Shown piece by piece: positions 1,200-53,363 of a stretch of 64,000 nt of DNA (within the stretch, counting starts at the first letter, position 1; each line of letters begins with the position of its first letter). Below the pieces are notes generated by a model, which was given only the letters and a program-made list of their open reading frames with translations, was not told the origin of the DNA and searched no databases. The stretch is from an uncultured bacterium (lineage in GTDB: Bacteria > Omnitrophota > Omnitrophia > Omnitrophales > Aquincolibacteriaceae), in the NCBI GenBank assembly GCA_964385615.1, contig CAYLPP010000010.1, forward strand, positions 21,565-85,564, written 5' to 3'. The position numbers were made by a program, and so were the translations under genes.

Positions 1200-1209
1200 T
1201 CGTAGATTG

Positions 1210-1248: not shown

Positions 1249-1330
1249 TTGGCCCGCACATTTTGTGCAAACCTGCCTGAATTTTAAAAGCGTTATTGTA
1301 CCAAAAACCCTGCAGAAATAAATGTTTAAA

Positions 1331-1810: not shown

Positions 1811-2499
1811 GAACGGTTCAGCGCGTTCAAGAACTGATCAAGGTCGGTCAGATCCGTGAAAATATAATCCGAACCCGCTTTTTCGAAGTCTTCTTTCTGA
1901 TAACGGCCGGTGGTAATGCCAATCGTACAGGCGCCAATCTGTTTGCCGGCATGAATATCCCAAACCGTATCGCCAATGACAAAAATATCCTGAGGGTCTA
2001 TCACGCGCCCGACAAAATCATGCCCGCGAAGCATCGCTTTACGGGTTAATTCCGGGCGGTGATGGGAATCCGACCCAAATCCGCCAAAACGAAAATGATG
2101 CCGTATGCTTCCCCGCTCAAGCTTGGACCACGCCGCCTTCTCAAAATTGCCCGTAGCGACTCCCAGGGCCAGATCCGGCATGGCTGAAAGTTTTCCCAGA
2201 AGCTGCTTAACGCCGGGCATCAGACGAAACCGGGAGGCCTCACGAATACCCTCTTCAAATAATTCCAGATAACGGCTACAAAAAGCCTGATATTCGGCAA
2301 GCGTTAAACTTCTTCCCAGATTAGCTTGAGCAATCTCTTCAACCAAAGCGGGATCCGTTTTCCCGTCAGGGATACAATTGCCCCAGGCATCTTTAAGACC
2401 GAACATTTCCTGAAAAACTTGATTAAACGCAACGGCTCCCGTGCCTCCTGTCAGGAGAAGAGTGCCGTCAATATCGAAGAGAAGCATTTTGCGGATCAT
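1807..2499 (-). CDS. HAD-superfamily hydrolase (subfamily IA, phosphatase-like)
   Basis: N-terminal LLFDIDGTLL motif (DxDGT) and a C-terminal GDTVWD motif. The stop overlaps the JAMM start by 4 nt. Confidence 0.75.
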   Translation of the reverse strand: MIRKMLLFDIDGTLLLTGGTGAVAFNQVFQEMFGLKDAWGNCIPDGKTDPALVEEIAQANLGRSLTLAEYQAFCSRYLELFEEGIREASRFRLMPGVKQLLGKLSAMPDLALGVATGNFEKAAWSKLERGSIRHHFRFGGFGSDSHHRPELTRKAMLRGHDFVGRVIDPQDIFVIGDTVWDIHAGKQIGACTIGITTGRYQKEDFEKAGSDYIFTDLTDLDQFLNALNRS

Positions 2500-2588
2500 G
2501 GGAATACTCAGAGAGGGTAAAACCTCAGCCTGCTAGCGCGCGCATGGTTTCATTAACCGTGACGCTCTGTAGCTGCGTTTATGCGCAA

Positions 2589-4184: not shown

Positions 4185-4233
4185 GCATCCCTTTACCGGC
4201 AAGCGCACAGCTTCTTTAGCTGCGGCTTTGCTG

Positions 4234-4262
4234 TACTTGCGCATCGGCGCATCGGCGCAGCT
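4234..4262. repeat. Second copy of the ACTTGCGCATCGGCGCA hairpin element, with an internal GCATCGGC duplication, immediately 3' of the OMP stop codon
   Basis: Read directly from the sequence. 17 of 18 positions match the element at 11594-11615. Confidence 0.55.
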
Positions 4263-5577: not shown

Positions 5578-5667
5578 AGTTTCGACTTAAACCGGGATTT
5601 CTTGACTGAGGTACGGCAATTATTATGGATTTTAGGTGTTCACGCAACTCTTTTTATAGCCAAAACT

Positions 5668-6051
5668 TCAGGCTTCAAAAGCATTGTGAATCAACTTGAA
5701 TTCAGGGGGGGTCTTGCCATCCCAGGTTACCGCCAGCACCTCGAAGGAAACCCGGGCTTCCTTGTCGGCAGTCTGCCTTAAATACCACTCTGCCAGCCGT
5801 ACCAGCTTTGCCTGCTTGGCTGGGGTTACCGCCTCTTGGGGAGATCCGAACCGGTTGCTGGAGCGGGTTTTGATCTCGATAAAAACCAGTCTTTTGTCTT
5901 TTTGGGCAACAACATCAATTTCACCCAGCGGACAGCGGAAATTCTTCTCTAAAATCCGGTACCCCTGGTCCAGAAGGTATTTCCACCCCAGAGTCTCTCC
6001 TCTTTGTCCCAAGCTTAAATGAAAAGGCCGTTTCGCGGGTCCGTATTTCAT
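5668..6051 (-). CDS. yraN: YraN-family (UPF0102) endonuclease-like protein
   Basis: GEIDVVAQKDKRLVFIEIKTRS core. The start is set at the internal MKYGP; with this start the gene overlaps the rnhB stop by 4 nt. Confidence 0.6.
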   Translation of the reverse strand: MKYGPAKRPFHLSLGQRGETLGWKYLLDQGYRILEKNFRCPLGEIDVVAQKDKRLVFIEIKTRSSNRFGSPQEAVTPAKQAKLVRLAEWYLRQTADKEARVSFEVLAVTWDGKTPPEFKLIHNAFEA

Positions 6052-6653
6052 AAATGGAGGAAGCTTTTCCTGTGAATAGGGCACGGCCCGATTTCTTTAA
6101 GCTTTTGCAGATGGAGCGCAGTTCCATAGCCTTTGTGTCTTTTAAATTCATAATGCGGGTACAGGCTGTCGAAATGAGTCATCAGGCAATCCCGATAGAC
6201 TTTCGCGATAATAGAAGCGGCCGCGACGGAAGCGGACTTACCGTCACCGCCGACGACAGGCTGTTGAGGAAGAGGGAGATCAATGCGGGCTTTGCCATCA
6301 ATAACGAGAAAATCGGGAGTACTGCTCAGCGCGAGGACCGCGCGTTTCATGGCCAGGCGGGATGCCTGGTAAATATTGATTTGATCAATGGTGTTTTCAT
6401 CCACCACACCGATGCCGACAAGACCATGTTTGATGATTTCGAAAAAGAGTCTTTCACGGGCAGCGGGCTGAACTTGCTTGGAATCATTCAGGCCTTTGAA
6501 ATCTCCAAGACGCCGGAGAACAACAGCCGCGGCCACTACTGGACCGGCCAAAGGGCCTCTTCCCGCTTCATCCACACCCGCCATCCGGGCTCCGGCAAAA
6601 GGCCGGGTCCGGTCATCAAATCCAAGAAGGCGCGGTAAAGTGGGCCGTATCAA
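6048..6653 (-). CDS. rnhB: Ribonuclease HII
   Basis: MAGVDEAGRGPLAGPVVAAAVVL (the DEAGRG active-site region) and an overall length of about 200 aa. Confidence 0.85.
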   Translation of the reverse strand: MIRPTLPRLLGFDDRTRPFAGARMAGVDEAGRGPLAGPVVAAAVVLRRLGDFKGLNDSKQVQPAARERLFFEIIKHGLVGIGVVDENTIDQINIYQASRLAMKRAVLALSSTPDFLVIDGKARIDLPLPQQPVVGGDGKSASVAAASIIAKVYRDCLMTHFDSLYPHYEFKRHKGYGTALHLQKLKEIGPCPIHRKSFLHL

Positions 6654-6665
6654 ACCGGACCGTGC

Positions 6666-6983
6666 TTATTTCTTGCGCAGGTGGTAAAGCTTGGCGCGAA
6701 TCGCCTTGCCTTTACGTCCGACTACGATCTTTTCAATCGTCGGGGAATGCACAGGAAAAATCTTTTCCACAATATCACCGTGGGTTTCCTTCACAACCGT
6801 AAAGCTGGCGGAAATCCCGGTGCCGCGGCGCGCAATGCAGACGCCTTCAAAAAGCTGGGTACGGGTTTTATCGCCTTCTTTAACACGGACGTGAACTTTC
6901 AGCGTGTCACCCACGCGGAACTCCGGAACATCCTTGCGCTGCGCTTCTTTTGTTACTTTATCAATCGCTTCGATCGCTTTCAT
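6666..6983 (-). CDS. rplS: 50S ribosomal protein L19
   Basis: EFRVGDTLKVHVRVKEGDKTRTQLFEGVCIARR aligns with the E. coli L19 motif [34 protein letters not shown]. Confidence 0.9.
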   Translation of the reverse strand: MKAIEAIDKVTKEAQRKDVPEFRVGDTLKVHVRVKEGDKTRTQLFEGVCIARRGTGISASFTVVKETHGDIVEKIFPVHSPTIEKIVVGRKGKAIRAKLYHLRKK

Positions 6984-7087
6984 TTTATTCTCCTAAATGA
7001 GCACCAGACTTACGACGCCTTCAGGCGGCGTTAAGTCCTCCGTGCGAATTTATTCCAGGAACCCGCGGCCTAGCGGGTGACGTGGAA

Positions 7088-7783
7088 CTACCTCAGGTCA
7101 GGCCGTCTTTTTTTTGTCATCTCTTTTGACAAATCGGCGCGCCACTTTTTGACTTCTTTATGATTTCCCGAAACCAGAATCTCGGGCACTTGCCAGCCCC
7201 GGAAGTCGCGAGGCCTTGTGTATTGAGGATACTCCAACTGGCTCTTATCCTCTAAAAAACTTTCTTCTTTCAACGAATCTTCATTACCGATCACGCCCGG
7301 AATCAGCCTTGTCACGGCCTCAATCAAACTGAGCGAGGGAGCTTCTCCGCCCATCGTGACAAAATCACCGATAGAAATCAATTCATCGGCCAGATGCTCG
7401 TGAACCCGGTGGTCAATGCCTTCGTAATGCCCGCAAAGCAGAACCAAATGTTTCTTTTCCGAAAGCTGCTTTGCTTTTTTCTGCGTGAATCTTTCTCCGC
7501 GCGCATCCAGCAGAACCACCCAGCCTGAGCCCTGCTTCTCGCGGATATCTTCCACGCACTCAAAAATCGGCTCCGGCTTCATGACCATTCCAGGCCCTCC
7601 GCCAAAAGGCTTGTCATCCACCGTCCGGTGACGGTCATGCGTGAATTTCCTTAAATCATGCACGCGGATATCGATCAGCTTTTTTTCCCGGGCCTTCTTG
7701 ATCAGAGATTCTTCCATCGGCCCTTTGAAAAAAGCCGGAAAGATCGTGACTAGGTCAATTTCAAAAGGCCGGGAACTTCCCAC
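7088..7783 (-). CDS. trmD: tRNA (guanine37-N1)-methyltransferase
   Basis: FEIDLVTIFPAFF...PFGGGPGMVMKPEP are the SPOUT TrmD motifs. The gene sits in rpsP-trmD-rplS synteny without rimM. Confidence 0.9.
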   Translation of the reverse strand: MGSSRPFEIDLVTIFPAFFKGPMEESLIKKAREKKLIDIRVHDLRKFTHDRHRTVDDKPFGGGPGMVMKPEPIFECVEDIREKQGSGWVVLLDARGERFTQKKAKQLSEKKHLVLLCGHYEGIDHRVHEHLADELISIGDFVTMGGEAPSLSLIEAVTRLIPGVIGNEDSLKEESFLEDKSQLEYPQYTRPRDFRGWQVPEILVSGNHKEVKKWRADLSKEMTKKRRPDLR

Positions 7784-8070: not shown

Positions 8071-9336
8071 TTACTCTTTTTCCCGGTGAATCGAAGCTCC
8101 GATCGCCGAAAACTTTTCTTCCAATTTTTCATAACCGCGGTCCAAATGGTATACGCGGTGAACTTCAGTCGTGCCTTCCGCCACCAAACCCGCCACCACG
8201 AGAGCGGCGCTGGCGCGAAGATCGGAAGCCATCACGGGCGCTCCCGACAAATTCTTAACCCCGTGCACAATCGCACTGGGACCTTCCAGAAAAATTTTTG
8301 ACCCCATGCGGTTCAATTCGCTGACATGCATGAACCGGTCCGGATAAATCTTTTCCGTAATCACGCTGATTCCCGGAGTGACCGCCATCAGCGCCATCAT
8401 CTGCGCCTGCAGGTCCGTAGGAAAACCGGGGTACGGAAGCGTCGTCACATCGACAGCTTTAAGCTTTCCGCTGCGCTTCACGCGGATAGTGCTCTTGCCT
8501 TTCTGAATCGTAACGCCCGCCTGCTTTAACTTATCAATGACCGCGTTCTGATGCGAAGGTTCCGTTTTCTTAATCAAAACGTCTCCGCCCGTCATCGCGG
8601 CCGCGAAAACATAGGTTCCGGTTTCAATCCGGTCCGGAATAATCGAGTATCGTGTTCCGTGAAGCTTTTTGACGCCTTCAATCGTCACAATCGGCGAACC
8701 TTCACCTTCAATTCGCGCGCCCATCTTCTTCAGAAACCTGGCCAGGTCTACAACCTCAGGTTCGCAAGCCGCGTTTTCAATCTGCGTCACGCCTTGAGCG
8801 AGCGTAGCGGCCATCATGACGTTTCCGGTGGCCAGCACCGAAGAACCAAAAGCCCCGCCCAAAAAAATGTCGGTTCCGCGAAGTTTTTTTAAAACCTTGG
8901 CGTGCACATACCCGTGCTGAATTTCAGATTTCGCGCCGAGTGCTTCAAGCCCCTTCAAATGCAGGTCGATCGGGCGTGAACCAATAATACATCCGCCGGG
9001 TACTGAAACTTCAGCCCGCCCCAAACGGGCGATCAGCGGACCCAGTACGCAGATCGAAGCGCGCATCGTGCTGACCAGCTTGTAGGGCGCTACCGGATTC
9101 AAATTTTTTCCGGGCTTAATAATGACCCGGCCTTTATCAAACTGAGCTTTACAGCCAAGCGCCCGAAGGAGCTTCAGCATGGTCTGAATGTCCCTTAAAT
9201 CGGGAACATTCTCAAGAATCGTTTCTTCTTCTGAAAGAAGCGCGGCCGCCATAATCGGCAGCGCGGAATTCTTGGCGCCGGAAATCTCGACTTCGCCCCT
9301 TAATTTCCGTCCGCCCTCAATAACGATCTTATCCAT
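8071..9336 (-). CDS. murA: UDP-N-acetylglucosamine 1-carboxyvinyltransferase
   Basis: MDKIVIEGGRKLRGEVEISGAKNSALPIMAAALL is a typical MurA N-terminus; the protein is 421 aa. Confidence 0.9.
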   Translation of the reverse strand: MDKIVIEGGRKLRGEVEISGAKNSALPIMAAALLSEEETILENVPDLRDIQTMLKLLRALGCKAQFDKGRVIIKPGKNLNPVAPYKLVSTMRASICVLGPLIARLGRAEVSVPGGCIIGSRPIDLHLKGLEALGAKSEIQHGYVHAKVLKKLRGTDIFLGGAFGSSVLATGNVMMAATLAQGVTQIENAACEPEVVDLARFLKKMGARIEGEGSPIVTIEGVKKLHGTRYSIIPDRIETGTYVFAAAMTGGDVLIKKTEPSHQNAVIDKLKQAGVTIQKGKSTIRVKRSGKLKAVDVTTLPYPGFPTDLQAQMMALMAVTPGISVITEKIYPDRFMHVSELNRMGSKIFLEGPSAIVHGVKNLSGAPVMASDLRASAALVVAGLVAEGTTEVHRVYHLDRGYEKLEEKFSAIGASIHREKE

Positions 9337-11615: not shown

Positions 11616-13013
11616 TTAATCTTTTACTTTGTTCATGCTGAGCAAAAATTCGGCATTGCTCTTGGTCTTGCCGAGACGGTCCACCAGAAGCTCCATGGCT
11701 TCGGCCGGATTCAGCTCGTTGAGAACCTTACGCAGCACCCACACCCGGGTCAGCTCATCCGGGTGCATCAGAATATCTTCCTTACGCGTGTTCGACTTCT
11801 TAACGTCGATCGCGGGATAGATACGTTTCTGGAACAAGTTGCGGTCCAGCTGGATTTCCATATTACCCGTACCTTTGAATTCTTCAAAGATCACTTCGTC
11901 CATGCGTGAACCGGTATCGACAAGAGCGGTCGCAATAATCGTCAAGCTTCCGCCTTCTTCAATATTACGCGCGGCGCCGAAAAACCGTTTGGGTTTGTGC
12001 AGCGCGCTGGAGTCCACACCGCCGGAAAGAATCTTCCCGGAATGCGGAACCACCGTGTTGTACGCGCGGGCCAGACGGGTGATGGAGTCAAGCAGGATCA
12101 CGACATCGCGCTTGTGTTCGACAAGACGCTTGGCTTTTTCGAGCACGATTTCAGCAACCTGAACGTGACGTTCAGCGGGTTCATCGAAAGTCGAAGAAAT
12201 AACTTCGCCTTTCACCGAACGCTGCATGTCCGTGACTTCTTCAGGACGCTCATCAATCAACAGCACAATCAGGTACGTGTCCGGATTGTTGTGCACAATG
12301 CTGTTGGCGATTTTCTGAAGCAGAATGGTTTTACCGCTGTAAGGCGGGGCCACGATCAAACCGCGCTGGCCGAAACCGATCGGCGTCAGAAGATCCATGA
12401 CGCGCATGGAGACTTCCTTCGGATCCGTTTCAAGCAAAATGCGTTTCTCGGGATACAGCGGAGTCAGGTTATCGAACGGAATCTTGTTCTTGATCGTCTC
12501 CGGATCTTCGAAATTGACCGCTTCAACCTTAAGCAGGGCGAAATAACGCTCGCCTTCCTTCGGAGGGCGGATATGCCCGCTAACGTTGTCACCCGTGCGC
12601 AGATTGAAACGGCGGATCTGGCTGGGAGAAACGTAAATATCGTCCGGTGAAGGCAAGTAGTTGTAGTTCGGGGAGCGGAGGAAACCAAAACCATCCTGGA
12701 GTATTTCCAGAACACCTTCTCCGAACATCAGTCCTGAACGCTCAGCCTGTGCCTGCAGAATTTTAAAAATCACATCCTGCTTTTTGACGCCGACGGTAGG
12801 ACCAATATTGAATTTGTGCGCCAGCTCGTGAAGCTCGCTGATTTTCATCCGCTTGAGGCTGACCACGTCAAAGGTCTTTTCCCCCGGTTTGGCTTCAGGA
12901 ATCTGGTTTTCACTCGCGTCATCAACGATCGGCGCGTGACTGTGGCGCTGAGGCGCTTCCGGCTTTCTGCTGGAATGCGATCTTTCGGGTCTTTCAGTTC
13001 TCTCTCTTGGCAT
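11616..13013 (-). CDS. rho: Transcription termination factor Rho, with a basic N-terminal extension of about 45 aa
   Basis: Cold-shock-like RNA-binding region (FGFLR), P-loop [12 protein letters not shown], and the C-terminal ATPase domain; 465 aa. Confidence 0.92.
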
Positions 13014-13017
13014 TGCT

Positions 13018-13617
13018 TTACTTCTCTCCTTTCGAAACGGAGCGGAGGTCTTTCCAGACTTTTTCCGCTTCCCGTCGGGTTGAATCTAAGTTACCTGAAT
13101 TATTAATAACGTAATCCGCTTTACTGACTTTTTCTTCCAGGGGCATTTGGGCTTTGCGGCGCGAAGCCACTTCGTCCGCCGAAAACCCGCGGGCTTTCAG
13201 ACGCTCGCAAACCGCTTCTTCCGGCGCGTTGACGACCACGACTTTGTCGCACCGTTTATCCAGTCCGCTTTCAAAAAGCAGCGGGACATTCAAAACCACC
13301 ATATCTTCTTCAGCTTCCAGAATCTCTTCTTCCATCCGGTCAAAAACGTACGGGTGAATAACAGCTTCGAGTTTCTTCCGTTTACCCGCGTCCTTGAAGA
13401 TGACTTCAGCAATCTTTTTACGGTCAAAACCCCGCGCAGTCCGCGCCTCAGGAAAAAGCTTCAGAATCTCTCCGTAAACGGAGCTTCCCTCCATCAGTGT
13501 TTCATGAGCCAGCTGATCGGCATCAATCATGCACGCGCCCAGCTCTTGAAACAAACCGGCTACCGTGGATTTTCCAGTGCCGAAACCGCCTGTTAGCCCG
13601 ACAATCGTTTTTTTCAT
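13018..13617 (-). CDS. coaE: Dephospho-CoA kinase
   Basis: [27 protein letters not shown] (P-loop); about 200 aa. Confidence 0.88.
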
Positions 13618-13620
13618 CGC

Positions 13621-16317
13621 TTACTTGTACCAGGAGTCCCCAGTGAAAACATCCACGCGAAGCGGCACTTTTAATTCATAAGCCGATTCCATTTCGGATC
13701 GGACCAGGCGCGTCATTTTTTCTTCTTCGCCCGGAGCCATATCAAATACCAGTTCATCGTGGACCTGCATGATCATCAAACTTTCCAACTTTTCTTTTTC
13801 AAGCCGTTCCTGAACCGTGAGCATGGCCAGTTTAATTAAATCCGCCGCAGAGCCCTGAATCGGCGCGTTAACCGCGGCGCGCTCAGCGAACTGCCGGACC
13901 ATGACATTCTTGGAATTAATATCCGGAAAATAAGACCGCCGGCCGAGGATCGTCGTCAAATAACCCTGCTTCCGCGCTTTTTCTTTCTGGCCTTCCAGAT
14001 AATCTTTAACCGCCTTGTAACGGTCGAAATAATTTTTAATGAACGTGTCGGCTTCCCCAATGGGAATACCCAGTTCCTGCGCCAGCCCGTAGGCTGTCTT
14101 GCCGTAAATCACGCTGAAATTAATTGTCTTGGCCATGTGGCGCATTTCACGCGTCACATCCTGCTCTTTGACGCCGTAAAGCAAAGTCGCCGTGTATTTA
14201 TGAACATCACGGTCTTCGCTGAAAGCGCTGGTCAAATTTTTGTCGCCGGTCAAATGCGCCAGAATTCGCAGTTCGATCTGCGAATAATCCGCGGATAAAA
14301 GTTTGCGTCCTTGCCCGCGCGGAACAAACGCTTTACGGATCTTCCGGCCCGATTCCGTCTTGATCGGGATATTCTGTAAATTCGGATCAGAGCTCGAAAG
14401 CCGCCCCGTGGCCGTCACCGTCTGGTGGTACGACGTATGCACCAGTCCCGTTTCCGGGTTGACCATTTCCGGAAGCGCATCCAGATAGGTTGATTTCAGT
14501 TTATTTTTTTCCCGGTACTCTAAAAGCTTCTTGGGCAATTCATAATTCACCGCCAGCCTCTCCAGGACGCCGACATCCGTCGAAAAACCGGTCTTGGTTT
14601 TCTTCATGGCCGGAAGCTTCATCTTCACAAACAGAATATCCGCCAACTGCTTGGTGGAATTAATGTTAAATTCCTGCCCGGCTTCTTCGTAAATCTCGCG
14701 AGTCAGGCGGTCTAATTCTTCCTGAGTCTCGTCTGAAAACTTTTTAAGCATTTTCAAATCAAGACAAACGCCATTCATCTCGATCTTGCCCAGCACCTGA
14801 GAAAGCGGCATTTCCAATTCCCGGAATAATTTCTCAAGCCCATCTTCTTCCAGGCGCTTGCTTAGCAGCGGCTGAAGCCGAAAAACGCAATCCGCGTCTT
14901 CGCAGGCATACTCCGAAATCTTTTCCAGCTCCACGTCCCCCATGGAAATCTGGTTTTTACCGCTCCCAATCAGCGAGTCCGTCGTGATCTTGCGCACGCC
15001 CAAAAACTCAAGGCTGATATCATCAAGATTGTGATTCAGCTTGATCGGATTCACCAGATAACTGGCAATCATGGTGTCAAAACTAATACCGCGCATCGCG
15101 ACACCCGCGCGGTTCAAAACAATCCAGTCGTACTTGATATTTTGACCGGTTTTTTTAATTTCCTCATCTTCCAGAACCGGTCTCAGAGCTTTAAGCACTT
15201 CCTTTTCGGAAAGACCAGGCCCTTTGTGATGCTGGCTTGAAACCGGAATATAAAAAGCTGAAAACGGCTCCCAGGAAAAACTCAACCCAACCAGCTTCGC
15301 GCGCATCGGATCGGCGGACGTTGTTTCCGTATCAAAGCTGAAATTTTCGGCTTTCTTCAGGTTACTCAAAAAAGCTTCAAACTCTTTTGCCGTCTGAACC
15401 GTTTGATAAGCCCGGCTCCCGGATTCCTTTTCCCCGGTCGGAATTAATTCCTTGGCAAGAGAGCGGAATTCGTAACGTTTATAAAACTCCAATAGTTTTT
15501 CAGAGGTTCCCGCGTGAAGTTTTGTTTTTTCCCAATCCACTTTCACTGGAACATTAAGCTCGATCGTGGCCAGCATTTTTGACATCTCAAGGCTTTTGAT
15601 ATTGTCCTTGATCAGCGTCTGCTGGGACTTGGAACTGATCTTTCCCGCGTGTTCGATCAGCTTCTCCACTGAGCCGAATTGATGAATCAATTTCACCGCG
15701 GTTTTCTCGCCAATCCCAGGCACCCCCGGAATATTATCTGACGCGTCTCCCATCAGCGCCATAATATCCACAACCTTCTCCGGCCCCAGGCCTTCGAAGC
15801 GCCTCTTAACGCCTTCGCGGTCAATCACAAGATCCTCTTTATGCGGATTGAGAATCTTGATCTGATCATCAACCAACTGCATGGCATCCTTGTCACTGGT
15901 CACAATAAATACGTCGAAACCTTTTTTAGCGCCCTGCACGGCCAGTGTACCGATCAGGTCATCGGCTTCATACCCGGCCATTTCAAAAAGCGCGTAATCC
16001 GATAAGCGACAGAATTCCTTGATCGGCTCCATCTGAGGAACCAGGTCTTCGGGCATCGGTTTGCGGTGCGCCTTATAATCTTCAAACCTTTCGTGGCGGA
16101 AGGTAGGTTCCTTGCGGTCAAAGCAGACCGCCAAATGGTCCGGCTCATGCTCCGCGATCAGTTTGCGCATGATGGAGATAAAACCGTAAATCGCGTTGGT
16201 CGGTTCCCCTTTGGAATTTGAAAGAGCGCGAATCGCGTAATACGCCCGGTAAATAAACGAACTACCGTCGATCAAATACAGCGTAGGCCGGCCGTTTTTA
16301 TTTTTTCCGGATTTCAT
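13621..16317 (-). CDS. polA: DNA polymerase I
   Basis: 898 aa. 5'-3' exonuclease N-terminus (LYLIDGSSFIYRAYYA), 3'-5' exonuclease and polymerase domains, with the C-terminal QVHDELVF motif C region. Confidence 0.92.
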   Translation of the reverse strand: MKSGKNKNGRPTLYLIDGSSFIYRAYYAIRALSNSKGEPTNAIYGFISIMRKLIAEHEPDHLAVCFDRKEPTFRHERFEDYKAHRKPMPEDLVPQMEPIKEFCRLSDYALFEMAGYEADDLIGTLAVQGAKKGFDVFIVTSDKDAMQLVDDQIKILNPHKEDLVIDREGVKRRFEGLGPEKVVDIMALMGDASDNIPGVPGIGEKTAVKLIHQFGSVEKLIEHAGKISSKSQQTLIKDNIKSLEMSKMLATIELNVPVKVDWEKTKLHAGTSEKLLEFYKRYEFRSLAKELIPTGEKESGSRAYQTVQTAKEFEAFLSNLKKAENFSFDTETTSADPMRAKLVGLSFSWEPFSAFYIPVSSQHHKGPGLSEKEVLKALRPVLEDEEIKKTGQNIKYDWIVLNRAGVAMRGISFDTMIASYLVNPIKLNHNLDDISLEFLGVRKITTDSLIGSGKNQISMGDVELEKISEYACEDADCVFRLQPLLSKRLEEDGLEKLFRELEMPLSQVLGKIEMNGVCLDLKMLKKFSDETQEELDRLTREIYEEAGQEFNINSTKQLADILFVKMKLPAMKKTKTGFSTDVGVLERLAVNYELPKKLLEYREKNKLKSTYLDALPEMVNPETGLVHTSYHQTVTATGRLSSSDPNLQNIPIKTESGRKIRKAFVPRGQGRKLLSADYSQIELRILAHLTGDKNLTSAFSEDRDVHKYTATLLYGVKEQDVTREMRHMAKTINFSVIYGKTAYGLAQELGIPIGEADTFIKNYFDRYKAVKDYLEGQKEKARKQGYLTTILGRRSYFPDINSKNVMVRQFAERAAVNAPIQGSAADLIKLAMLTVQERLEKEKLESLMIMQVHDELVFDMAPGEEEKMTRLVRSEMESAYELKVPLRVDVFTGDSWYK

Positions 16318-16510
16318 TCAATTGAATTTAAAAACAAGGATTTCTCATGCAGCATATGGAAGAGACTTGGGAACCGGGAAAAACAGAATTAAATTAAACC
16401 TCTAAGTCTTGATTTTTAAGGGATTTAGAATTGCCGCGCGGGCCTGACGAGACTGGATTTACTCTCCGTGAGGCATTAGGATACTCAAAGCCCTCTAGGT
16501 GGTCAAGCTT

Positions 16511-17632
16511 TTATTTCTTTAGAGGGGACACCGGTTTAGCCGGCTGTTTCAGGGCCCTCTCAGCCAGCTCCTTGGGATCCTGCGCCATTTCAATCATCGA
16601 GTCGTAACTGATGATACCACCTTGATATAGCTCTTTTAAGTGGTCATCCAGAGCCCGCATCCCAAACCGGGCGCCTGTCTGAATCTCAGAGACCACCTGA
16701 TAGGTCTTCCCTTCCCGGATCAGATTCCGGATGGCCGGAGTCGCAATCATAATCTCAAAAGCGCAAATACGCCCTCCTTTACCATCAATACGGGGAAGCA
16801 GAGTCTGTGAAATGACCGCGACCAGGGTTGAGGCCAGCTGAATACGGATCTGGGTCTGTTGGTGCGCCGGAAACACGTCAATAATACGGTCTACCGTGCG
16901 GGCCGCGCCGGTCGTATGAAGGGTTGAGAAAACCAGATGGCCGGTTTCAGCAGCACGAATCGCCGTTTCCATGGTGGAAAGGTCGCGCATTTCACCGATC
17001 AGAATCACGTCCGGATCCTGACGCAAAGCTTTGACCACCGCTTCGGAAAAGCTGGGCACGTCTTCCCCGACTTCACGCTGAGTCATCACTGATTTTTTGT
17101 GAGGATGCATGAATTCAATCGGATCTTCAGCCGTAATAATGTGCTTCTCAAAATTTTCATTGATGTAATTGAGCATGGAAGCGAGCGTCGTGGTTTTACC
17201 GGAACCCGTGGGACCCGTAACCAGGATCAGACCTCTCGGACGGGAAAGCAACTCGACCAAGTGCTGAGTCGGAAGCCCGATCTGCTCAAAAGAATAAAAC
17301 TTGTAAGGAAGCTGGCGGAGCACCATCGCGTAGGTGCCTTTTTGCTTATAACAGGAAACGCGGAAACGCGCTTTCTCACCGTAGGAAAAACCAAAATCGA
17401 TACCGCCGACTTCTTCGACTTTTTTACGCTGTTCTTCCGTTGTGATTTCACGGGCAAGCTCTTCGGTCTCCTGCGCGGTCAAAGGTTTGTCATCAATTGA
17501 GGTGATGATGCCGTGAAGACGCACGGACCGGGGACGGCCCACGGAAATATGGATATCGGAAGCTTCACGTTCAATCGCGTAATTTAAAATGGATTCGATA
17601 GACATATTGATCTCCTTAATGAAGGATAACAC
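16511..17632 (-). CDS. pilT: Type IV pilus retraction ATPase PilT
   Basis: GLILVTGPTGSGKTTTLASMLNYIN Walker A, Asp box, His box and the PilT-type C-terminal region; 373 aa. Confidence 0.85.
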   Translation of the reverse strand: MLSFIKEINMSIESILNYAIEREASDIHISVGRPRSVRLHGIITSIDDKPLTAQETEELAREITTEEQRKKVEEVGGIDFGFSYGEKARFRVSCYKQKGTYAMVLRQLPYKFYSFEQIGLPTQHLVELLSRPRGLILVTGPTGSGKTTTLASMLNYINENFEKHIITAEDPIEFMHPHKKSVMTQREVGEDVPSFSEAVVKALRQDPDVILIGEMRDLSTMETAIRAAETGHLVFSTLHTTGAARTVDRIIDVFPAHQQTQIRIQLASTLVAVISQTLLPRIDGKGGRICAFEIMIATPAIRNLIREGKTYQVVSEIQTGARFGMRALDDHLKELYQGGIISYDSMIEMAQDPKELAERALKQPAKPVSPLKK

Positions 17633-17732
17633 CGCGATCCAAGAATACCAGAAACCCGCGGTGCCGGCGCGATACGTACCGGCATATCGACTTTTGAAGC
17701 AACGGCCATACCCAGATAAAACTGTAGCCGGT

Positions 17733-18251
17733 TTAAGCGCGAAGGTAAGGCAAAAGCGCCCAGGCCGATAAAATCAGAGAAGCCCAAAAAGCCTGAAGGA
17801 GCTTCAGCGGTAAGCCGGCGGTTATTTTAGGCGGTCTAAAAAAAAGCGCCCGCTCATTGAAGCCCAGCATTATCATTCGAAAGCCGGAAAACAGCAGGGC
17901 GGATTGTAAGATCTCTTTCAAGAACTGAGAACCGGCACCAGGGCTCAGATAACGGAAACTTAATCCGCAAACCGCCAGAAAAAAAACGAACGGCCGGCGG
18001 GCGAGAGAACAAACGGCAAAAACCGCGGGAATCATCCAAAGCGCGAAATCTTCCCGGCTGAAAGAAATAAAATTCAGAAGGAGAACGGCCGTAAGAGCGA
18101 TTACGGCCACGCACGCAAAAATGCGGAAAGTATCTTCCAGAATTTGGCGCGGAGAAACGCGTTCTTCCGCTAGACAGAATAGAAAACCAAAAGCGATTGA
18201 GGAGAAAAGAATGGAGTTCACACTTCCGCCGCCGATTGAAATTTTTTCCAT
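17733..18251 (-). CDS. RnfA/NqrE-like small polytopic membrane subunit (divergent)
   Basis: About 170 aa with 5-6 TM segments. Its C-terminal ...LFSGFRMIMLGFNERAL resembles the RsxA ...YGFSAAVGFSLVM...IRERL region. The start is set at the internal MEKISIGG. Confidence 0.4.
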   Translation of the reverse strand: MEKISIGGGSVNSILFSSIAFGFLFCLAEERVSPRQILEDTFRIFACVAVIALTAVLLLNFISFSREDFALWMIPAVFAVCSLARRPFVFFLAVCGLSFRYLSPGAGSQFLKEILQSALLFSGFRMIMLGFNERALFFRPPKITAGLPLKLLQAFWASLILSAWALLPYLRA

Positions 18252-18760
18252 CCCGAACCGGTAAAAAGCGCTTTCTGCTTTCGGCTGGCCGGCCAGACCA
18301 TCGCGGGAAGAATCAGCAATGCTAAACTCCCGGGAACCCTCTGAAAAAGCGGCCACTCGGCCTGACGCCCTAAAACTTCCTGCGTAATGCCAAGATAAAT
18401 TACAAGGGCCAGAAAACAAACCGCTTTAATAAAAACTGACGTGGGATCGCGGTGCTTCTCCTGCCGGCCCGCGAGCGGAAAAAGCAGAAGACAAACGCTT
18501 AAGGCCGCCGCCCCGCGTGAGTATTGAAATCCGGGGAGAACGGAAACGGCGCAGCAAACGGTTAAAACCGTAGCCCACGAGATCAGGCGTTTTGGAAAAA
18601 GAGGGGTCAGAATCTCAAAAAGAAGCGCCGTCGCGACAAATACCGCGGCAACCGAAAAACCCGCCTCAAGGGAAGATCCGAACTGAAGCAGTCCGGGAAG
18701 AATGGGAAAAACGGGAGCCGCAGCTTCAGAGAAAGAAGGGAGAAGGTATTTTTTTTTCAC
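18218..18760 (-). CDS. RnfE/NqrD-like small polytopic membrane subunit (divergent)
   Basis: 180 aa polytopic membrane protein whose start overlaps the RnfG-like stop by 4 nt. The call rests mainly on context plus topology. Confidence 0.35.
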   Translation of the reverse strand: MKKKYLLPSFSEAAAPVFPILPGLLQFGSSLEAGFSVAAVFVATALLFEILTPLFPKRLISWATVLTVCCAVSVLPGFQYSRGAAALSVCLLLFPLAGRQEKHRDPTSVFIKAVCFLALVIYLGITQEVLGRQAEWPLFQRVPGSLALLILPAMVWPASRKQKALFTGSGWKKFQSAAEV

Positions 18761-19263
18761 GCGAAAGTTCCTTCGCTGGCTTTTTCAATAAAAAGCGCGC
18801 GTCGGCTGTCAAAGAATTCCTGGGCGCCGGAAACCAAGTCCGGAGCAAGTCTGTTTTCGGGGACAAGCGCTTTTCTGATAAAACTGGGCTTCAATCCCGT
18901 AACCCTGCCCTCGAGATCGATCCCAATCAAAACCGGATTGACGCCTTCACCGTCTGAGTTCTCCGAAATCCAAAAAGCAAAACCCGTGAGCTTATTAACC
19001 CTGACAGGTTCTGATACTTCATCCAGCCGCACATCCTGCTCATGCCGGGCCGGAAAAATCCGGCGGCCTTCGATTTCAAAAGATTCTTCTTCCGGATGAT
19101 TGCTGAAAGAAGGCAGAACCGTTTTTAAATCGAGCTCGGTCTTCGAAGTTTTTTCCGCCGCTGTGTCGACCTTCAATAAAAAGACGCCAGCGGCCAGCGC
19201 CGCCGCGTAAACAATCAAAAATAAATACTGCAGAATGACGATTCTTCTTTTCTTTTCAGACAT
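18757..19263 (-). CDS. RnfG/NqrC-like periplasmic FMN_bind-fold subunit lacking the flavinylation threonine
   Basis: N-terminal TM anchor and an FMN_bind-like core (VLIGIDLEGRVTGLKP). The D-x-x-[ST]-G-A-T site reads DLVSGAQ, so the flavin-accepting Thr is replaced by Gln. The start is set at MSEKKRR (19263). Confidence 0.55.
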   Translation of the reverse strand: MSEKKRRIVILQYLFLIVYAAALAAGVFLLKVDTAAEKTSKTELDLKTVLPSFSNHPEEESFEIEGRRIFPARHEQDVRLDEVSEPVRVNKLTGFAFWISENSDGEGVNPVLIGIDLEGRVTGLKPSFIRKALVPENRLAPDLVSGAQEFFDSRRALFIEKASEGTFA

Positions 19264-20095
19264 TTGGAAAAACTTTCGATTTTTCACGGGCCGGAAACGG
19301 CTGGGTGAGCGCGTCAAACCAAGGGGTTAAAACATTCACGCTCAGAATAGCCAACGCGCAAGCCAAAAAAAGCGGCAGTCCATTCCCATATAAAACTACC
19401 GTTAAAAACCCGGCTGTTAGAGAAAATACGCAATGCCCGTAAAGACTCAGCGGAGTCGTTTCGGCATCTGTAATAATAAAAAACCCCGTGATTATCCAAA
19501 CGCTTATATCGCGCGGAGAAATTGGGATTCCAAACCAAAAAATGCCGGTAAATACTGCCGCTAGATAAATAAAAGGAATCTGCGGGCGGAATACTTTGCG
19601 CGCGGCCAACCAAAAAACCCCAGGGATCAGCAGGGCCGGAACCATCCAGGCAATGATTGACGTTGGTAATTCTTGATTCGAAAAAACATTCTGCCCTTGC
19701 AGAAGAATCGCCAGAAAAAGAAAAGCCGCGGGAACGGGATGCGCAAAACAGGCTCCCTGACCGCCTAAAAAAGTTCTCGCGAACAAAAGAGAGAAAAAAA
19801 GCCCCGCGGCGGCGGCTGGAAGGGCGGTGCTTGCCGGAATAAGAGCTGTGTAAAGCAGCGCGTATAAAACCAGACTTCCTTTTTTAAATTCTTCCGATTT
19901 TTTCAGCACTAGTCCGGAAAAAAATTCATGCCCGGCACAAGCCAGCAAAGATACCGCCATGATAAACAACCTGGAAGGTTCCGCGAAAAATGAAAGGCCT
20001 ACAGAAGGCAAAAGAACCGCGGCAGCTGCCCAGTTCAGACTCTGAACCGTCTGAGAAGACCGGATATGGGGATGCGTGCCGGAACTGTAGCTCAT
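19256..20095 (-). CDS. RnfD/NqrB-like membrane subunit lacking the flavin-bearing loop
   Basis: The C-terminal FFIITDAETTPL matches the RnfD FFMLTDPVTSP motif, and GQGACFAHP aligns to the GQNPFNPAM region. The protein is 279 aa versus about 350 aa for RsxD. The roughly 60-aa loop carrying the S/TGAT FMN-attachment site is absent. Confidence 0.6.
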   Translation of the reverse strand: MSYSSGTHPHIRSSQTVQSLNWAAAAVLLPSVGLSFFAEPSRLFIMAVSLLACAGHEFFSGLVLKKSEEFKKGSLVLYALLYTALIPASTALPAAAAGLFFSLLFARTFLGGQGACFAHPVPAAFLFLAILLQGQNVFSNQELPTSIIAWMVPALLIPGVFWLAARKVFRPQIPFIYLAAVFTGIFWFGIPISPRDISVWIITGFFIITDAETTPLSLYGHCVFSLTAGFLTVVLYGNGLPLFLACALAILSVNVLTPWFDALTQPFPAREKSKVFPNV

Positions 20096-20104
20096 AAACG
20101 CCCG

Positions 20105-21397
20105 CTATTTTTTAGCAGGCTGCGCGGTTTTCTGAAGTTCTTCGTCAATCACTCTTTGAAAACTCGCGAAAGGCTGAGCCCCCTTCATAATCCGGCCGTT
20201 CACAAAAACCGCCGGCGTTCCTGTGACTCCGGATTCAATCCCTTTCTGAATATCTTTCTGCACAATATCCTTGGGCTCTTGAGAATCCAAACATTTCTTA
20301 AAATCTTTCATTTTTAAACCTGTTTGCTCAGCCAGCGAAATAAGCAAAGCGTCATCTTTGGTAACATTGAGATTTTGAAAGAGCTTCTGATGGTACGGCC
20401 AGAATTTCCCTTGTTGATTCGCGCATTCCGAAGCTTGATGGGTGCGGTCCGAACCCGCGTGCATCTGCAGCGGAAAATGCCGCCAGACTTTCCGGACTTT
20501 CCCCTGATATTGAGTCATCACTTGCTGAATCGTAGGTTCAAGGCGCTGGCAAAACGGGCAATGAAAATCGCTGAATTCCACAAGAAGAACCGGGGCTTTT
20601 TCAGGACCTTCGGAAGGCCGTCCCGCGAGGTCATTGAATTCGACAATTTTAGGCGGTTCGGGCGGAGCTACGGGAGCGGCCGCGGAAGGCGCTGCGGCCG
20701 GGGGCTGTTTTCCCGGATTTAGAATTGCTTCAATTTTATTTACAAAAGCCTGATAAGAAAGTGCTCCGGACGATTTTTGACCGTTGATGAAAAAAGTCGG
20801 AGTCCCGTCTACCTGAAGGTCTCTGGCTTCTTTTAAATCAGCGTCGATAGCCTTTTTAGGCCGGCCGCTGGCAAGACAGCTTTCAAACGCCGCGGAATTT
20901 AAGCCGATCTGAGCGGCGATTTGCCGAATAACCGCAGCATCCGGCCGGTCGGCGCGGGCGTATACCGCATCATGAAAAGGCCAGAACTTTCCCTGCTCGT
21001 GCGCGCAAACCCCGGCCTGATGAACCAGATAAGAACCCTGCCCGGGAGTTTCAGAAAGCGGAAGGTTTTTATAAATAATGTGAACTTGATTCGGATAATT
21101 ATTAAAAACCTGGAGCAGTGTAGGGGCCGCTTTTTTACAATATGGACAGAAGAAATCCGAGAAATCAACAATCGTCACGGGCGCGTTGGCTGGACCCCGG
21201 TCAGGCGAAGGTGTCTGGACCGGCTTTTTAACCTGAGCCGCAAGCTGAAGAGTCCCGGTAGCTGGAATCAATGGATTGGCCGTGGGGGCAGGCACGGGAG
21301 CTGAAGCTGTTTTATGATAAGTCACAAAAGCAACGACAGTCGCAAGGGTCAAAGCAGTACCGCAGACAAATCCGGAAAGAAAAGGATTGGGTTTCAT
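20105..21397 (-). CDS. Membrane-anchored tandem DsbA-like thiol:disulfide oxidoreductase (two thioredoxin-fold domains)
   Basis: N-terminal TM anchor followed by two DsbA-family domains. Each has a CxxC active site (FSDFFCPYCKK and FSDFHCPFCQR) and the VCAHEQGKFWPFHD / CANQQGKFWPYHQ helical-insert signature. The two are separated by a Pro/Ala-rich linker. Confidence 0.75.
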   Translation of the reverse strand: MKPNPFLSGFVCGTALTLATVVAFVTYHKTASAPVPAPTANPLIPATGTLQLAAQVKKPVQTPSPDRGPANAPVTIVDFSDFFCPYCKKAAPTLLQVFNNYPNQVHIIYKNLPLSETPGQGSYLVHQAGVCAHEQGKFWPFHDAVYARADRPDAAVIRQIAAQIGLNSAAFESCLASGRPKKAIDADLKEARDLQVDGTPTFFINGQKSSGALSYQAFVNKIEAILNPGKQPPAAAPSAAAPVAPPEPPKIVEFNDLAGRPSEGPEKAPVLLVEFSDFHCPFCQRLEPTIQQVMTQYQGKVRKVWRHFPLQMHAGSDRTHQASECANQQGKFWPYHQKLFQNLNVTKDDALLISLAEQTGLKMKDFKKCLDSQEPKDIVQKDIQKGIESGVTGTPAVFVNGRIMKGAQPFASFQRVIDEELQKTAQPAKK

Positions 21398-21403
21398 AGA
21401 TTC

Positions 21404-22648
21404 CTATTTTGAGTTCGCGTAACGGATTAACTCGGTCATGGGCCGTTTGGACGGACACACGTAGGAGCAATTTCCGCATTCCACGCAATATTCTGAACCA
21501 TACTGCCGCGCCAGATTAACTCTGTCATTTTCGGCAGCAAGACTGATCATAGCCGGAGAAATTCCGGCCGGACAAACATCCAGACATCGCCCGCATCGAA
21601 TACAAGGTTCCGGGACTTCCGGCCTGGAGGCCTCAATCGGCAGAGCCAGAATCCCCTGGGTTCCAGGCACAACAACAGCATCCAGACTCTTTTGAGTCTT
21701 TCCGCTCATGGGACCGCCCATGATTAATTTTCGGGGTTCACGCATAAAACCTTTACAAGTTTTAACGACGCTTGAAAAATCCTGCCCCATCCGGGCCCAG
21801 ACATTTTTAGGCTCCATCACGCATTCCCCGGAAACAGTCACAACCCGCTCAAGAAAAGGCTTATGGAAAACCGCGGCTTCATACACCGCGAAAACCGCGG
21901 ATGGATCAAAAATACAGGCGGAATCCAACCCGGCCCGGCGAGAAAGAATATTTTCAGTGTCCGGGTAACCGCATGGAATCATCCGCACATCAGCGTGTTC
22001 CCATTTCAAAAAATAGATTTTACTTTTCAAAAGTTCCGCGGCTTCACGTTTATCCTCTTCGGTCACGATCAGAATATTTTCAGCACCGCACGCGCGCCTG
22101 AGAATTTCAGCGCCTTTCAAAATTTCCAGAGGATGCGACATGATCAAAGAGTAATTCGAGGAAAGATACGGCTCCGACTCACAAGCATTCACAACGAGCG
22201 TCTTAGCCGGGGCTTTGATTTTAAGATGCGCGGGCGTCATTTTCAGATCCGTATCCATCAGGCCCATTTCCCTGAAAAATTCCGGCCACCGGTCCGCCGG
22301 CATTTTTTCCCAGTCCTGCTCTTTTCCGAATCCCGGTATTTTTTCATCCTGGCCGTCAGAAAGAATTTCAATGGCCTGCGATCTTCCAAAAACCGGGTGC
22401 TCTATTTTAAGAATTTTCGAGACTTTTCCAGAGACGGACGCGTGAAGCGCGACATTGGAAATATGCCCCGGCTCGGCGATTTTTTGCCCCATAAGAACAG
22501 CATCCCCCGCTTTCACGCAGGGATGGGCTTCAAAACCGGTGGATTGCAGAAGGGGAACGCAAATTTTAGCGGGAGAGGAAGAAGGGCGGTGAATCGTCCA
22601 GATCAGGAAAAAAATTTCTTTTTTGTTTTCGAGCTTTAAAAGTTTCAT
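21404..22648 (-). CDS. RnfC-like subunit with two [4Fe-4S] ferredoxin motifs but no GGAGFP flavin/NADH motif
   Basis: Aligns to E. coli RsxC in the barrel-sandwich region (CVKAGDAVLMGQ), the ...LVVNACESEPY... region, VTVSGE...NVWARMG and IMGGPMSG. It has two CxxCxxCxxxCP motifs (CIRCGRCLDVCPA and CVECGNCSYVCPS). The position of GLGGAGFPTGVKL reads GLMDTDLKMTPAHLKIK. Confidence 0.6.
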   Translation of the reverse strand: MKLLKLENKKEIFFLIWTIHRPSSSPAKICVPLLQSTGFEAHPCVKAGDAVLMGQKIAEPGHISNVALHASVSGKVSKILKIEHPVFGRSQAIEILSDGQDEKIPGFGKEQDWEKMPADRWPEFFREMGLMDTDLKMTPAHLKIKAPAKTLVVNACESEPYLSSNYSLIMSHPLEILKGAEILRRACGAENILIVTEEDKREAAELLKSKIYFLKWEHADVRMIPCGYPDTENILSRRAGLDSACIFDPSAVFAVYEAAVFHKPFLERVVTVSGECVMEPKNVWARMGQDFSSVVKTCKGFMREPRKLIMGGPMSGKTQKSLDAVVVPGTQGILALPIEASRPEVPEPCIRCGRCLDVCPAGISPAMISLAAENDRVNLARQYGSEYCVECGNCSYVCPSKRPMTELIRYANSK

Positions 22649-22666
22649 GCCTGCCGCCGAGGGAAA

Positions 22667-23740
22667 TCAGGACACGAGATCAATCCAACCGCCGCCCAAA
22701 ACCCTGTTACCGTCATAGAGAACCGCGCCCTGCCCCGGAGTAATGGCATCCTGCGGCTCTTCAAATTCAATGGCAATACTCTGATCATTTAAAACCCTGA
22801 TTTCCGCGGGAGCCTTGGTGTGCTGTGAGCGGATTTTAACATGCGCCTTAAAAAGATTTTCACCTGGTTTCACAAACCAATTCATACGGCCCACATTGCA
22901 CCGCAAGCCGTACACTTCTTCTTTTGTGCCGACAACCACTTCATTTGTTTCAGGCAATGTTTCAAGCACGTAAAGGCGTTCTGAATTTCCTCCGCCCAAG
23001 CCGCGCCGCTGGCCGCGGGTGTAATTAAAAAATCCTTCGTGTTCGCCAAGAACCTGGCCCGCGCGGGTACGGATAATTCCTTTACGGGGAGCCGCTTCCT
23101 TATATTCGCGTTTCAGAAACTGACCGTAATCATTGCTCGGAATAAAGCAGATTTCCTGAGAATCCGGCTTTCCGGCAACTTTCAGCCCCATTTCAGCCGC
23201 CTGAGCCCGAATCTCCGCCTTGGTGAAACCTCCAATAGGAAGGTAAAGCCGGTTCAGCACTTCCGGGTCTAAAGGAAACAGAACATACGACTGATCTTTT
23301 GAAGCATCGGCACCTTCTGATAAAACCGAACGGCCGGTTTCGTCACGTTCAAGTTTCGCGTAATGTCCGGTGGCAATCGCGTCAAAACCCAATTCCTGGG
23401 CGCGCTTTAAAAATAGACGAAATTTGATGTGCTCATTACAAGCGACGCAAGGATTGGGTGTACGGCCCTTGAGGTATTCGGAAGCAAAATAATCAACAAC
23501 GTGTTTTTTGAAATCTTTTTCAAAATTAAAAACCCAGTAGCGGATTCCCAGTGATTCAGCGACATCACGCGCGTCTTCAACGCCGGAAAGACCGCAGCAG
23601 GCCCGGGTATTCAGATCCGCGCATTCATTGGAAGCCCACGTGCGGATCGTGGCCCCCGCGACCTCATGGCCCTGCTTCTGTAAAAGAGCCGCGGCCACGG
23701 AACTGTCCACTCCGCCGCTCATGGCGACAAGTATTTTCAT
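22667..23740 (-). CDS. mnmA: tRNA-specific 2-thiouridylase
   Basis: MKILVAMSGGVDSSVAAALL PP-loop, 357 aa, and a MnmA-type C-terminal domain. Confidence 0.88.
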   Translation of the reverse strand: MKILVAMSGGVDSSVAAALLQKQGHEVAGATIRTWASNECADLNTRACCGLSGVEDARDVAESLGIRYWVFNFEKDFKKHVVDYFASEYLKGRTPNPCVACNEHIKFRLFLKRAQELGFDAIATGHYAKLERDETGRSVLSEGADASKDQSYVLFPLDPEVLNRLYLPIGGFTKAEIRAQAAEMGLKVAGKPDSQEICFIPSNDYGQFLKREYKEAAPRKGIIRTRAGQVLGEHEGFFNYTRGQRRGLGGGNSERLYVLETLPETNEVVVGTKEEVYGLRCNVGRMNWFVKPGENLFKAHVKIRSQHTKAPAEIRVLNDQSIAIEFEEPQDAITPGQGAVLYDGNRVLGGGWIDLVS

Positions 23741-23742
23741 AG

Positions 23743-25868
<2,126 letters not shown>

Positions 25869-53349: not shown

Positions 53350-53363
53350 GGAGAAGATGTTTG

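Follow-up and report, generated by a model that had tools for sequence, protein, structure and literature searches.

Tandem DsbA-family domains encoded by dsbA2, a gene embedded in a degenerate Rnf-like operon of an uncultured Omnitrophota bacterium

The gene dsbA2 lies on the minus strand of a 64,000-nucleotide (nt) stretch of contig CAYLPP010000010.1 (assembly GCA_964385615.1) from an uncultured Omnitrophota bacterium; the whole 64-kb stretch is termed the window and unprefixed nucleotide positions refer to it. The gene runs from an ATG to a TAG and encodes a membrane-anchored protein with two DsbA-family domains that is identical (100%) to database protein P0001. It is embedded among genes related to those of the Rnf complex, in the order rnfC'-[dsbA2]-rnfD'-G'-E'-A' (17733-22648, all on the minus strand), with junctions of +6, +9, -8, -4 and -4 nt. 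The TAG of rnfC' is separated by 6 nt from the ATG of dsbA2, and the TAG of dsbA2 by 9 nt from the ATG of rnfD'. Feature coordinates are collected in Table 1.

Both halves of the dsbA2 product are complete DsbA domains. A Pfam scan matched Thioredoxin_4 (PF13462; expect value E=2.7e-55) and DSBA (PF01323; E=7.1e-48) in two stretches each, and an alignment of one half against the other shows 37% identity over 166 columns (E=1e-41). The AlphaFold2 model, with a mean predicted local distance difference test score (pLDDT) of 86.5, contains a helix at amino acids (aa) 5-30 and two confident DsbA folds; a stalk (32-59) and the Pro/Ala linker (232-246) are disordered, and a predicted template modelling score of 0.50 suggests that the relative orientation of the two domains is not fixed. 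Pfam, the AlphaFold2 secondary structure and Foldseek agree that each domain has the DsbA fold, which combines a thioredoxin domain with an inserted helical domain. Domain 1 has a CPYC active site (21137-21148), a cis-Pro loop GTPTFFING (T199-P200) and a second Cys pair in its helical insert (C131/C174); the counterparts in domain 2 are CPFC (20549-20560), GTPAVFVNG (T394-P395) and C325/C369. By fold and catalytic motifs the protein is a member of the DsbA family. A preliminary description of the locus had claimed a membrane-anchored protein with two complete DsbA-like domains, formed by internal tandem duplication, joined by a Pro/Ala-rich linker, each with a CxxC site and a cis-Pro region, and packed between rnfC-like and rnfD-like genes; all of these claims are borne out here, the last by the 6-nt and 9-nt gaps and by the rnfC-D-G-E-A order of the surrounding genes.

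Residue conservation was read from an alignment of 19 two-domain dsbA2 orthologues. Both CxxC Cys pairs, both Thr-Pro loops and the additional pairs C131/C174 and C325/C369 are invariant in all 19 sequences. The dipeptide of domain 2 is constant (CPFC in 19/19); the domain 1 site varies among CPYC, CPFC, CGFC, CGYC, CSFC and CVFC. Single-domain versions at two loci (L012 and L014) belong to the domain 2 type. At L021 (11109-12623) and L056 (11262-12614), one of the two DsbA domains is without CxxC (CPYS in L021), so that a redox-inactive domain appears to be tolerated in some orthologues. In all orthologues a hydrophobic segment comes after a short N-tail that contains K/R. A periplasmic location is favoured, as a prediction, by the putative signal-anchor helix, the positive N-tail and the invariant non-catalytic Cys pairs; the invariance of these extra pairs suggests that they may be structural disulfides and that the protein would hence reside in an oxidising compartment. 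Lipoprotein status was considered and rejected: there is no lipobox, and Cys12, which lies in 'GFVCG' within the anchor helix, is Y, G, A or S in orthologues.

Homologues of dsbA2 are numerous, with at least 3208 at E<=1e-5 among the candidates scored. The best 120 matches are all multi-domain proteins of 400-750 aa with 2-4 DsbA domains, and the homologues that carry a name are called 'DsbA family' or 'thioredoxin domain-containing' and come from Omnitrophota and Myxococcota. Both groups are rich in tandem DsbA proteins with 2-4 domains, and no characterised member was found in the searched literature; the architecture is widespread yet apparently uncharacterised. The nearest solved relatives of each domain, from phmmer and Foldseek, are C. 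diphtheriae DsbA/TsdA, S. pomeroyi 3GYK, B. subtilis BdbD, ScsC and Wolbachia alpha-DsbA1; DsbA/TsdA, BdbD, ScsC and alpha-DsbA1 are oxidoreductases that are exported. Assignment to NF041057 (Rcas_1661 thioredoxin-like (seleno)lipoprotein) was rejected, since the whole-protein score of 225 bits arises only as the sum of two copies and each domain falls below the equivalog cutoff of 190 bits (domain 1, 103.5; domain 2, 124.9). Inspection by eye indicates that longer members of the family (~570-770 aa) have, between the anchor and the DsbA domains, a chaperone-type segment that resembles SurA_N/PpiD (L017 11324-13096, L034 11430-13727 and L006 8001-9722); Pfam support for such a segment comes from the gene that neighbours the L006 member.

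Table 1. Positions of dsbA2, its protein domains and the surrounding Rnf-like genes in the window
Feature	Position	Strand	Basis
dsbA2: 430-aa membrane-anchored tandem DsbA-family protein	20105-21397	-	Open reading frame, Pfam, homologues, AlphaFold2
N-terminal transmembrane anchor, aa 5-30, predicted N-in/C-out	21308-21385	-	AlphaFold2 helix; orthologue N-tails
DsbA domain 1, aa ~65-228	20714-21205	-	Pfam, self-alignment, AlphaFold2
Pro/Ala-rich inter-domain linker, aa ~229-250, KQPPAAAPSAAAPVAPPEPPK	20648-20713	-	Sequence; pLDDT <50 at 232-246
DsbA domain 2, aa ~251-425	20123-20647	-	Pfam, self-alignment, AlphaFold2
rnfC': both CxxCxxCxxxCP motifs, degenerate GxGGxxFP flavin mononucleotide (FMN)/NADH loop	21404-22648	-	TIGR01945, 7zc6_C
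rnfD': without the loop bearing the flavinylated Thr	19256-20095	-	PF03116; 7zc6_D profile
rnfG': truncated RnfG-like periplasmic protein without S/TGAT motif	18757-19263	-	Profile
rnfE': very divergent RnfE-like membrane protein	18218-18760	-	36-sequence profile
rnfA': divergent RnfA/NqrE-like membrane protein	17733-18221	-	41-sequence profile

The surrounding genes are correctly described as an Rnf-like operon. The rnfC' product matches TIGR01945 with 282.7 bits (cutoff 245.95) and the Protein Data Bank (PDB) chain 7zc6_C with E=1.2e-60, and the rnfD' product matches PF03116 with 101.5 bits and, as a profile, 7zc6_D with E=3e-42. The three small open reading frames that follow (rnfG', rnfE' and rnfA') have no Pfam or NCBIfam match. 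A profile of rnfG' matches RnfG chains only (8rb9_G, E=6e-4; 7zc6_G, E=0.016), and an ATG at 19263 reproduces the 8-nt overlap with rnfD' that occurs in L001. For the E-like and A-like proteins, small initial profiles yielded either no match or E=0.069, and larger alignments were required: the rnfE' profile matches RnfE of three organisms (8ahx_E, E=0.0034; 7zc6_E, 0.074; 9eri_E, 0.12), and the rnfA' profile matches RnfA (8ahx_A, 1.4e-9) and NqrE (7xk3_E, 6.8e-8). Because an hhalign comparison of the E-like with the A-like profile showed no detectable homology (probability 0.8%), rnfE' and rnfA' are tied separately to RnfE and RnfA through the PDB profiles. Judged from its orthologues and the sequence, the start of rnfA' is probably the GTG at 18221, in a GTGA that would overlap the rnfE' stop.

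The operon that bears dsbA2 is not a canonical Rnf. No rnfB occurs between mnmA and pilT, as judged from window open reading frames and Pfam. The eight iron-sulphur (Fe-S) cysteines of RnfC' are invariant, and the FMN/NADH loop is degenerate: the window has GLMDTDLKMTPAHLKI aligned opposite GIVGMGGATFPTHVKL of 7ZC6, and the GxGGxxFPT loop is degenerate in every Omnitrophota RnfC' orthologue and kept in 3/6 non-Omnitrophota outgroup loci. RnfD' has a gap opposite 'TTATPL...' of 7zc6_D; the column of the flavinylated Thr is gapped in 38/54 RnfD-like sequences (four of which are non-Omnitrophota outgroups), and no Omnitrophota sequence of this alignment keeps the full [S/T]GAT motif. RnfG', present in only 11 loci, has no conserved [S/T]GAT or Thr motif (SGAQ in the window, with orthologues unrelated there). 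No Cys is invariant or near-invariant in 36 E-like or 41 A-like sequences, and the Cys of the RnfE 'LCP' motif is replaced in rnfE' ('AvLP'). A conserved cysteine relay was sought in RnfD', G', E' and A' and not found. With these cofactor sites and cysteines lost, the RnfC'/D'/G'/E'/A' set has no recognisable cofactor path across the membrane and no Cys pair for a thiol relay. The outgroup loci used here (L060-L065) are RnfC-RnfD-only pairs or truncated loci and supply no canonical RnfG/E/A. In two of them, from Oscillospiraceae (L062 9130-11699 and L063 9923-12165), RnfC and RnfD form a pair and no rnfG/E/A/B is detectable downstream, and the open reading frame after rnfD in L062 resembles a class II aminoacyl-tRNA synthetase by eye.

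The presence of DsbA in this operon is limited to part of the phylum. An RnfC' profile scan in which each species was represented by one genome recovered 59 loci, of which about 53 belong to Omnitrophota, and junction states were read from a hidden Markov model map of these loci. An Rnf-like operon of the form rnfC'D'(G')E'A', without rnfB, occurs in about 55 Omnitrophota species (L008-L059, L061, L064). A DsbA gene with 1, 2 or 3 domains directly follows rnfC' at about 20 loci, a count that includes the window and four loci from other look-ups, and is followed by rnfD' where the contig continues. At 31 loci rnfC' and rnfD' abut or overlap with nothing between them. At three more, seven opposite-strand genes occupy the junction as a 7-kb block (L025 11365-18959, L046 11327-18517 and L048 at the same junction), and L067 has an Amidohydro_2 (amidohydrolase) gene (8277-9239) between dsbA2 and rnfD'. 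RnfG' and DsbA co-occur inconsistently across loci. A neighbour-joining tree of RnfC' unites the DsbA-bearing loci in a single large clade, of which one subclade lacks DsbA and whose sister clade is without it; this grouping is consistent with one ancient insertion followed by loss. Two contigs of metagenome-assembled genome nzgw335 (JAHFHI01), L013 and L020, both carry mnmA-rnfC'-dsbA, which represents either a duplicated locus or a two-strain bin.

Gene order around dsbA2 is conserved far beyond the DsbA-bearing species. The array bioA-bioD-(mnmA)-rnfC'-(dsbA)-rnfD'-(G')-E'-A'-pilT-polA-coaE-rho (11616-25868 in the window) is collinear in about 50 species, and its genes are functionally unrelated. 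Adjacency within an array that is collinear phylum-wide is therefore little evidence of shared function. The mnmA gene is clade-limited much like dsbA and is confined to the clade whose members also tend to have dsbA. Coding sequence makes up ~96% of the window; same-strand gaps have a median of 9 nt and 55% of them are <=10 nt, so that the 6-nt and 9-nt gaps that flank dsbA2 are unremarkable. Minus-strand genes of the window point away from a dnaA/rnpA region near 53.5 kb that is probably the replication origin. In this region (~52987-55187), rnpA and yidC occupy the minus strand and dnaA-dnaN-dciA-gyrB-gyrA the plus strand, with a strand switch and a sign change in guanine-cytosine skew at about 54 kb.

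Close relatives of dsbA2 also occur away from any Rnf-like gene. Homologues with 44-49% identity lie in unrelated neighbourhoods at L005 (TARA), L006 and L007 (Myxococcus xanthus); at L006 the order is a SurA_N gene, dsbA and then lpxD. L069 is collinear with window positions 1331-7783 (38-63% protein identity), and its tandem DsbA gene, 49% identical to dsbA2, follows a Prok-JAB gene. In the window, the position just downstream of the Prok-JAB gene is held by a 237-aa multihaem cytochrome c (546-1259, minus strand; Cytochrome_C7/c3 matches, five CxxC). Rnf-embedded forms do not separate from non-embedded ones in a tree of the last DsbA domain but are interspersed with them. The placement of dsbA2 looks like a lineage-specific insertion into a conserved array and not like evidence of work with Rnf.

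The reading that best accommodates these observations, to which we assign a probability of roughly 0.6, is that dsbA2 encodes a housekeeping extracytoplasmic thiol:disulfide oxidoreductase for the folding of envelope and secreted proteins, which owes its position to insertion and has no mechanistic dependence on Rnf. The N-terminal signal-anchor would tether the protein to the outer face of the inner membrane, and the flexible stalk and Pro/Ala linker would hold two independent DsbA modules. Domain 2, with its invariant CPFC, would represent the ancestral core and is most likely the site that introduces disulfides. Domain 1, whose dipeptide varies so that some orthologues have CGYC or CGFC, probably differs from it in redox potential and may serve for proof-reading or isomerisation. 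Together the two domains could act as a two-site enzyme resembling protein disulfide isomerase (PDI), with domain 1 as a tunable second site. The re-oxidant or reductant would be encoded elsewhere or be a small molecule. The gene would have entered a permissive junction of a tightly packed, phylum-wide array near the replication origin in one clade, where it would be co-transcribed with the Rnf-like genes and remain mechanistically independent of them. A folding role for the family fits the SurA_N/PpiD-like segment of some orthologues and the SurA_N gene and lpxD that adjoin another.

Several points weigh against this reading. No candidate for DsbB, VKOR or MauE is present in the 64-kb window, and no oxidant or reductant partner was identified there. 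Among the about 20 DsbA-bearing species, RnfC' proteins are only 37-68% identical and the junction position is nevertheless kept. A promoter and terminator scan of 16300-24600 found nothing above shuffled expectation. Because the position is retained across such diverged species, the gaps are 6 and 9 nt and neither a promoter nor a terminator signal separates the genes, there is room for regulatory or functional coupling of dsbA2 to the Rnf-like genes. Absence of DsbA from the 31 loci applies to the operon locus only and not to the rest of those genomes, and the neighbour-joining trees of RnfC' and the DsbA domain are without support values.

The search for a redox partner covered the multi-transmembrane proteins of the window, none of which has a CxxC or CXC motif, and no CcdA or DsbD is present in the window. 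Outside the operon, these proteins are TatC, YidC, a GGDEF protein and a partial open reading frame with one Cys. The partial frame (63544-64000, plus strand) runs off the end of the window and has about four hydrophobic segments, with a DmsC-like score of 21.8 bits against a cutoff of 22.3; its single Cys rules it out as a DsbB, VKOR or MauE candidate. The E. coli genes dsbA and dsbB are not linked, and DsbA of S. aureus functions in the absence of DsbB. The absence of a partner from 64 kb says little because a dsbA gene and the gene for its oxidant are usually unlinked. In addition, MauE has been described as a third class of DsbA oxidant beside DsbB and VKOR, and in about 20% of the species surveyed all three are missing (10.64898/2026.03.05.709764).

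The main rival explanation, possible although unlikely, is that dsbA2 is mainly a reductase or isomerase of the DsbC, ScsC or PDI kind, with two sites that shuffle or reduce disulfides and are kept reduced by a CcdA-, DsbD- or ScsB-type transporter encoded elsewhere. Two thioredoxin-type sites per chain would parallel multivalent isomerases, which include the DsbC dimer and PDI with its a and a' domains. ScsC trimers are among the closest structures, and domain 1 is CGYC or CGFC in several orthologues; CGYC is the motif of E. coli DsbC. A weak pointer in the same direction is that, in the part of the supplementary table of PMC10066038 available here, two Omnitrophota entries are listed with K06196 (ccdA) and not with K03611 (dsbB). 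However, sequence comparison ranks oxidases first (C. diphtheriae DsbA/TsdA and BdbD), the CPFC of domain 2 is the motif in the C. diphtheriae DsbA alignment, dsbA2 has no dimerisation or trimerisation segment and no substrate-cleft domain, and the reducing transporters sought in the window are missing.

The preliminary description had also stated that no DsbB or VKOR lies nearby, which holds for the 64-kb window, the stretch examined, and had implied that the Rnf-like proteins stand in for them, which is not supported. As a full hypothesis, dsbA2 would be the dedicated periplasmic partner of an Rnf-derived membrane complex, re-oxidised or reduced without quinone in place of DsbB, VKOR or MauE. 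The gene is embedded in the operon and almost certainly co-transcribed with it, about 20 species retain it at the junction, two [4Fe-4S] motifs persist in RnfC', the window holds no known DsbA oxidant, and further disulfide-forming pathways are expected to exist (10.64898/2026.03.05.709764). Against these points stand the unlinked oxidant genes, MauE and the species that have none of the three oxidants; the tight packing that is the norm here; the operons without DsbA (31 of about 55 Omnitrophota species) and four others with other cargo, of which three have rnfC' and rnfD' split by 7 kb of opposite-strand genes; the inconsistent co-occurrence of RnfG' and DsbA; the closely related tandem DsbA genes outside any Rnf context; and the collinear bioA-to-rho array, which makes synteny uninformative. 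The Rnf-like proteins themselves have no RnfB, have lost the RnfC' FMN loop, the RnfD'/G' flavinylation sites and the RnfE'/A' Fe-S cysteines, and have no conserved Cys in any membrane subunit. A dedicated partnership is thus improbable, and the more specific proposal that a cofactor-stripped Rnf descendant (RnfC' with two [4Fe-4S] clusters plus RnfD'/G'/E'/A') was re-purposed as the membrane partner of tandem DsbA in one Omnitrophota clade is about as improbable. Also improbable is a specialised folding factor for a local client, either type IV pilins, which require a disulfide and are suggested by pilT 100 nt downstream of rnfA', or the five-CxxC multihaem cytochrome at 546-1259, since pilT comes after the operon whether or not a species has DsbA there, dsbA2 has no pilin gene as a neighbour, and cytochrome c maturation uses TlpA/ResA-type and not DsbA-type proteins.

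As a DsbA-family envelope-folding enzyme, the dsbA2 product is ordinary. A two-site, membrane-tethered DsbA is nonetheless a reasonable target for studies of oxidative folding in uncultured anaerobes. More surprising, and more consequential, is the degenerate Rnf-like operon. Metabolic reconstructions have treated Omnitrophota Rnf as a working ferredoxin:NAD+ pump (PMC10066038, PMC8542988), and published annotations of this kind need a check of which locus they rest on. A canonical rnf copy may exist elsewhere in some lineages because, among the entries listed in the part of the supplementary KEGG orthology list of PMC10066038 that was available, two show all six rnf orthologues. If an Rnf descendant did work with tandem DsbA, it would constitute quinone-independent disulfide recycling and a fourth class beside DsbB, VKOR and MauE.

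Comparison with known systems places the operon and the protein differently. Like Rnf (RnfCDGEAB) and Na+-NQR, the operon has the gene order C-D-G-E-A, and homology is detectable for each of the five subunits. Unlike them, it has no RnfB, and the RnfC FMN loop, the covalent-FMN Thr of RnfD and RnfG and the Fe-S Cys of RnfE and RnfA are missing. In the searched literature, no report of a DsbA gene within a canonical rnf operon was found, nor anything relevant on RnfC or RnfD in Omnitrophica. BdbD of B. subtilis (3EU3) has BdbC, a DsbB-type protein, as its partner. With this protein and with C. diphtheriae DsbA (4PWO) and TsdA (7UNN), dsbA2 shares the thioredoxin domain that carries a helical insert, the CPxC site, the Thr-cisPro loop and, as a prediction for dsbA2, a membrane-tethered or exported state; matches to this group reach E=8e-16 by sequence and 1e-11 by Foldseek, with template modelling scores to the target of 0.59-0.83, and the motif in the 4PWO alignment is CPFC, as in domain 2. 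These relatives are single-domain proteins, whereas dsbA2 has two tandem domains and a second conserved Cys pair in each. Known routes for recycling DsbA domains are DsbB, VKOR and MauE, including VKOR-Trx and MauE-Trx fusions (10.64898/2026.03.05.709764); none of them is fused to the dsbA2 product, adjacent to its gene or present in the window. Several thioredoxin-type sites on flexible linkers are also a feature of the ScsC trimer, the DsbC dimer and PDI, and the ScsC catalytic domain is structurally close. Unlike ScsC and DsbC, dsbA2 is multivalent by tandem duplication and not by oligomerisation, and it has no adjacent ScsB or DsbD. The multi-DsbA proteins of Omnitrophota and Myxococcota differ from dsbA2 in that some have three or four domains (M. 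xanthus P0087 has 656 aa and three DsbA domains) and that the Myxococcus and TARA loci have no Rnf neighbours. They are nevertheless its direct homologues, with 36-61% identity, and share with it the repeated domain, the CPFC motif and the N-terminal anchor.

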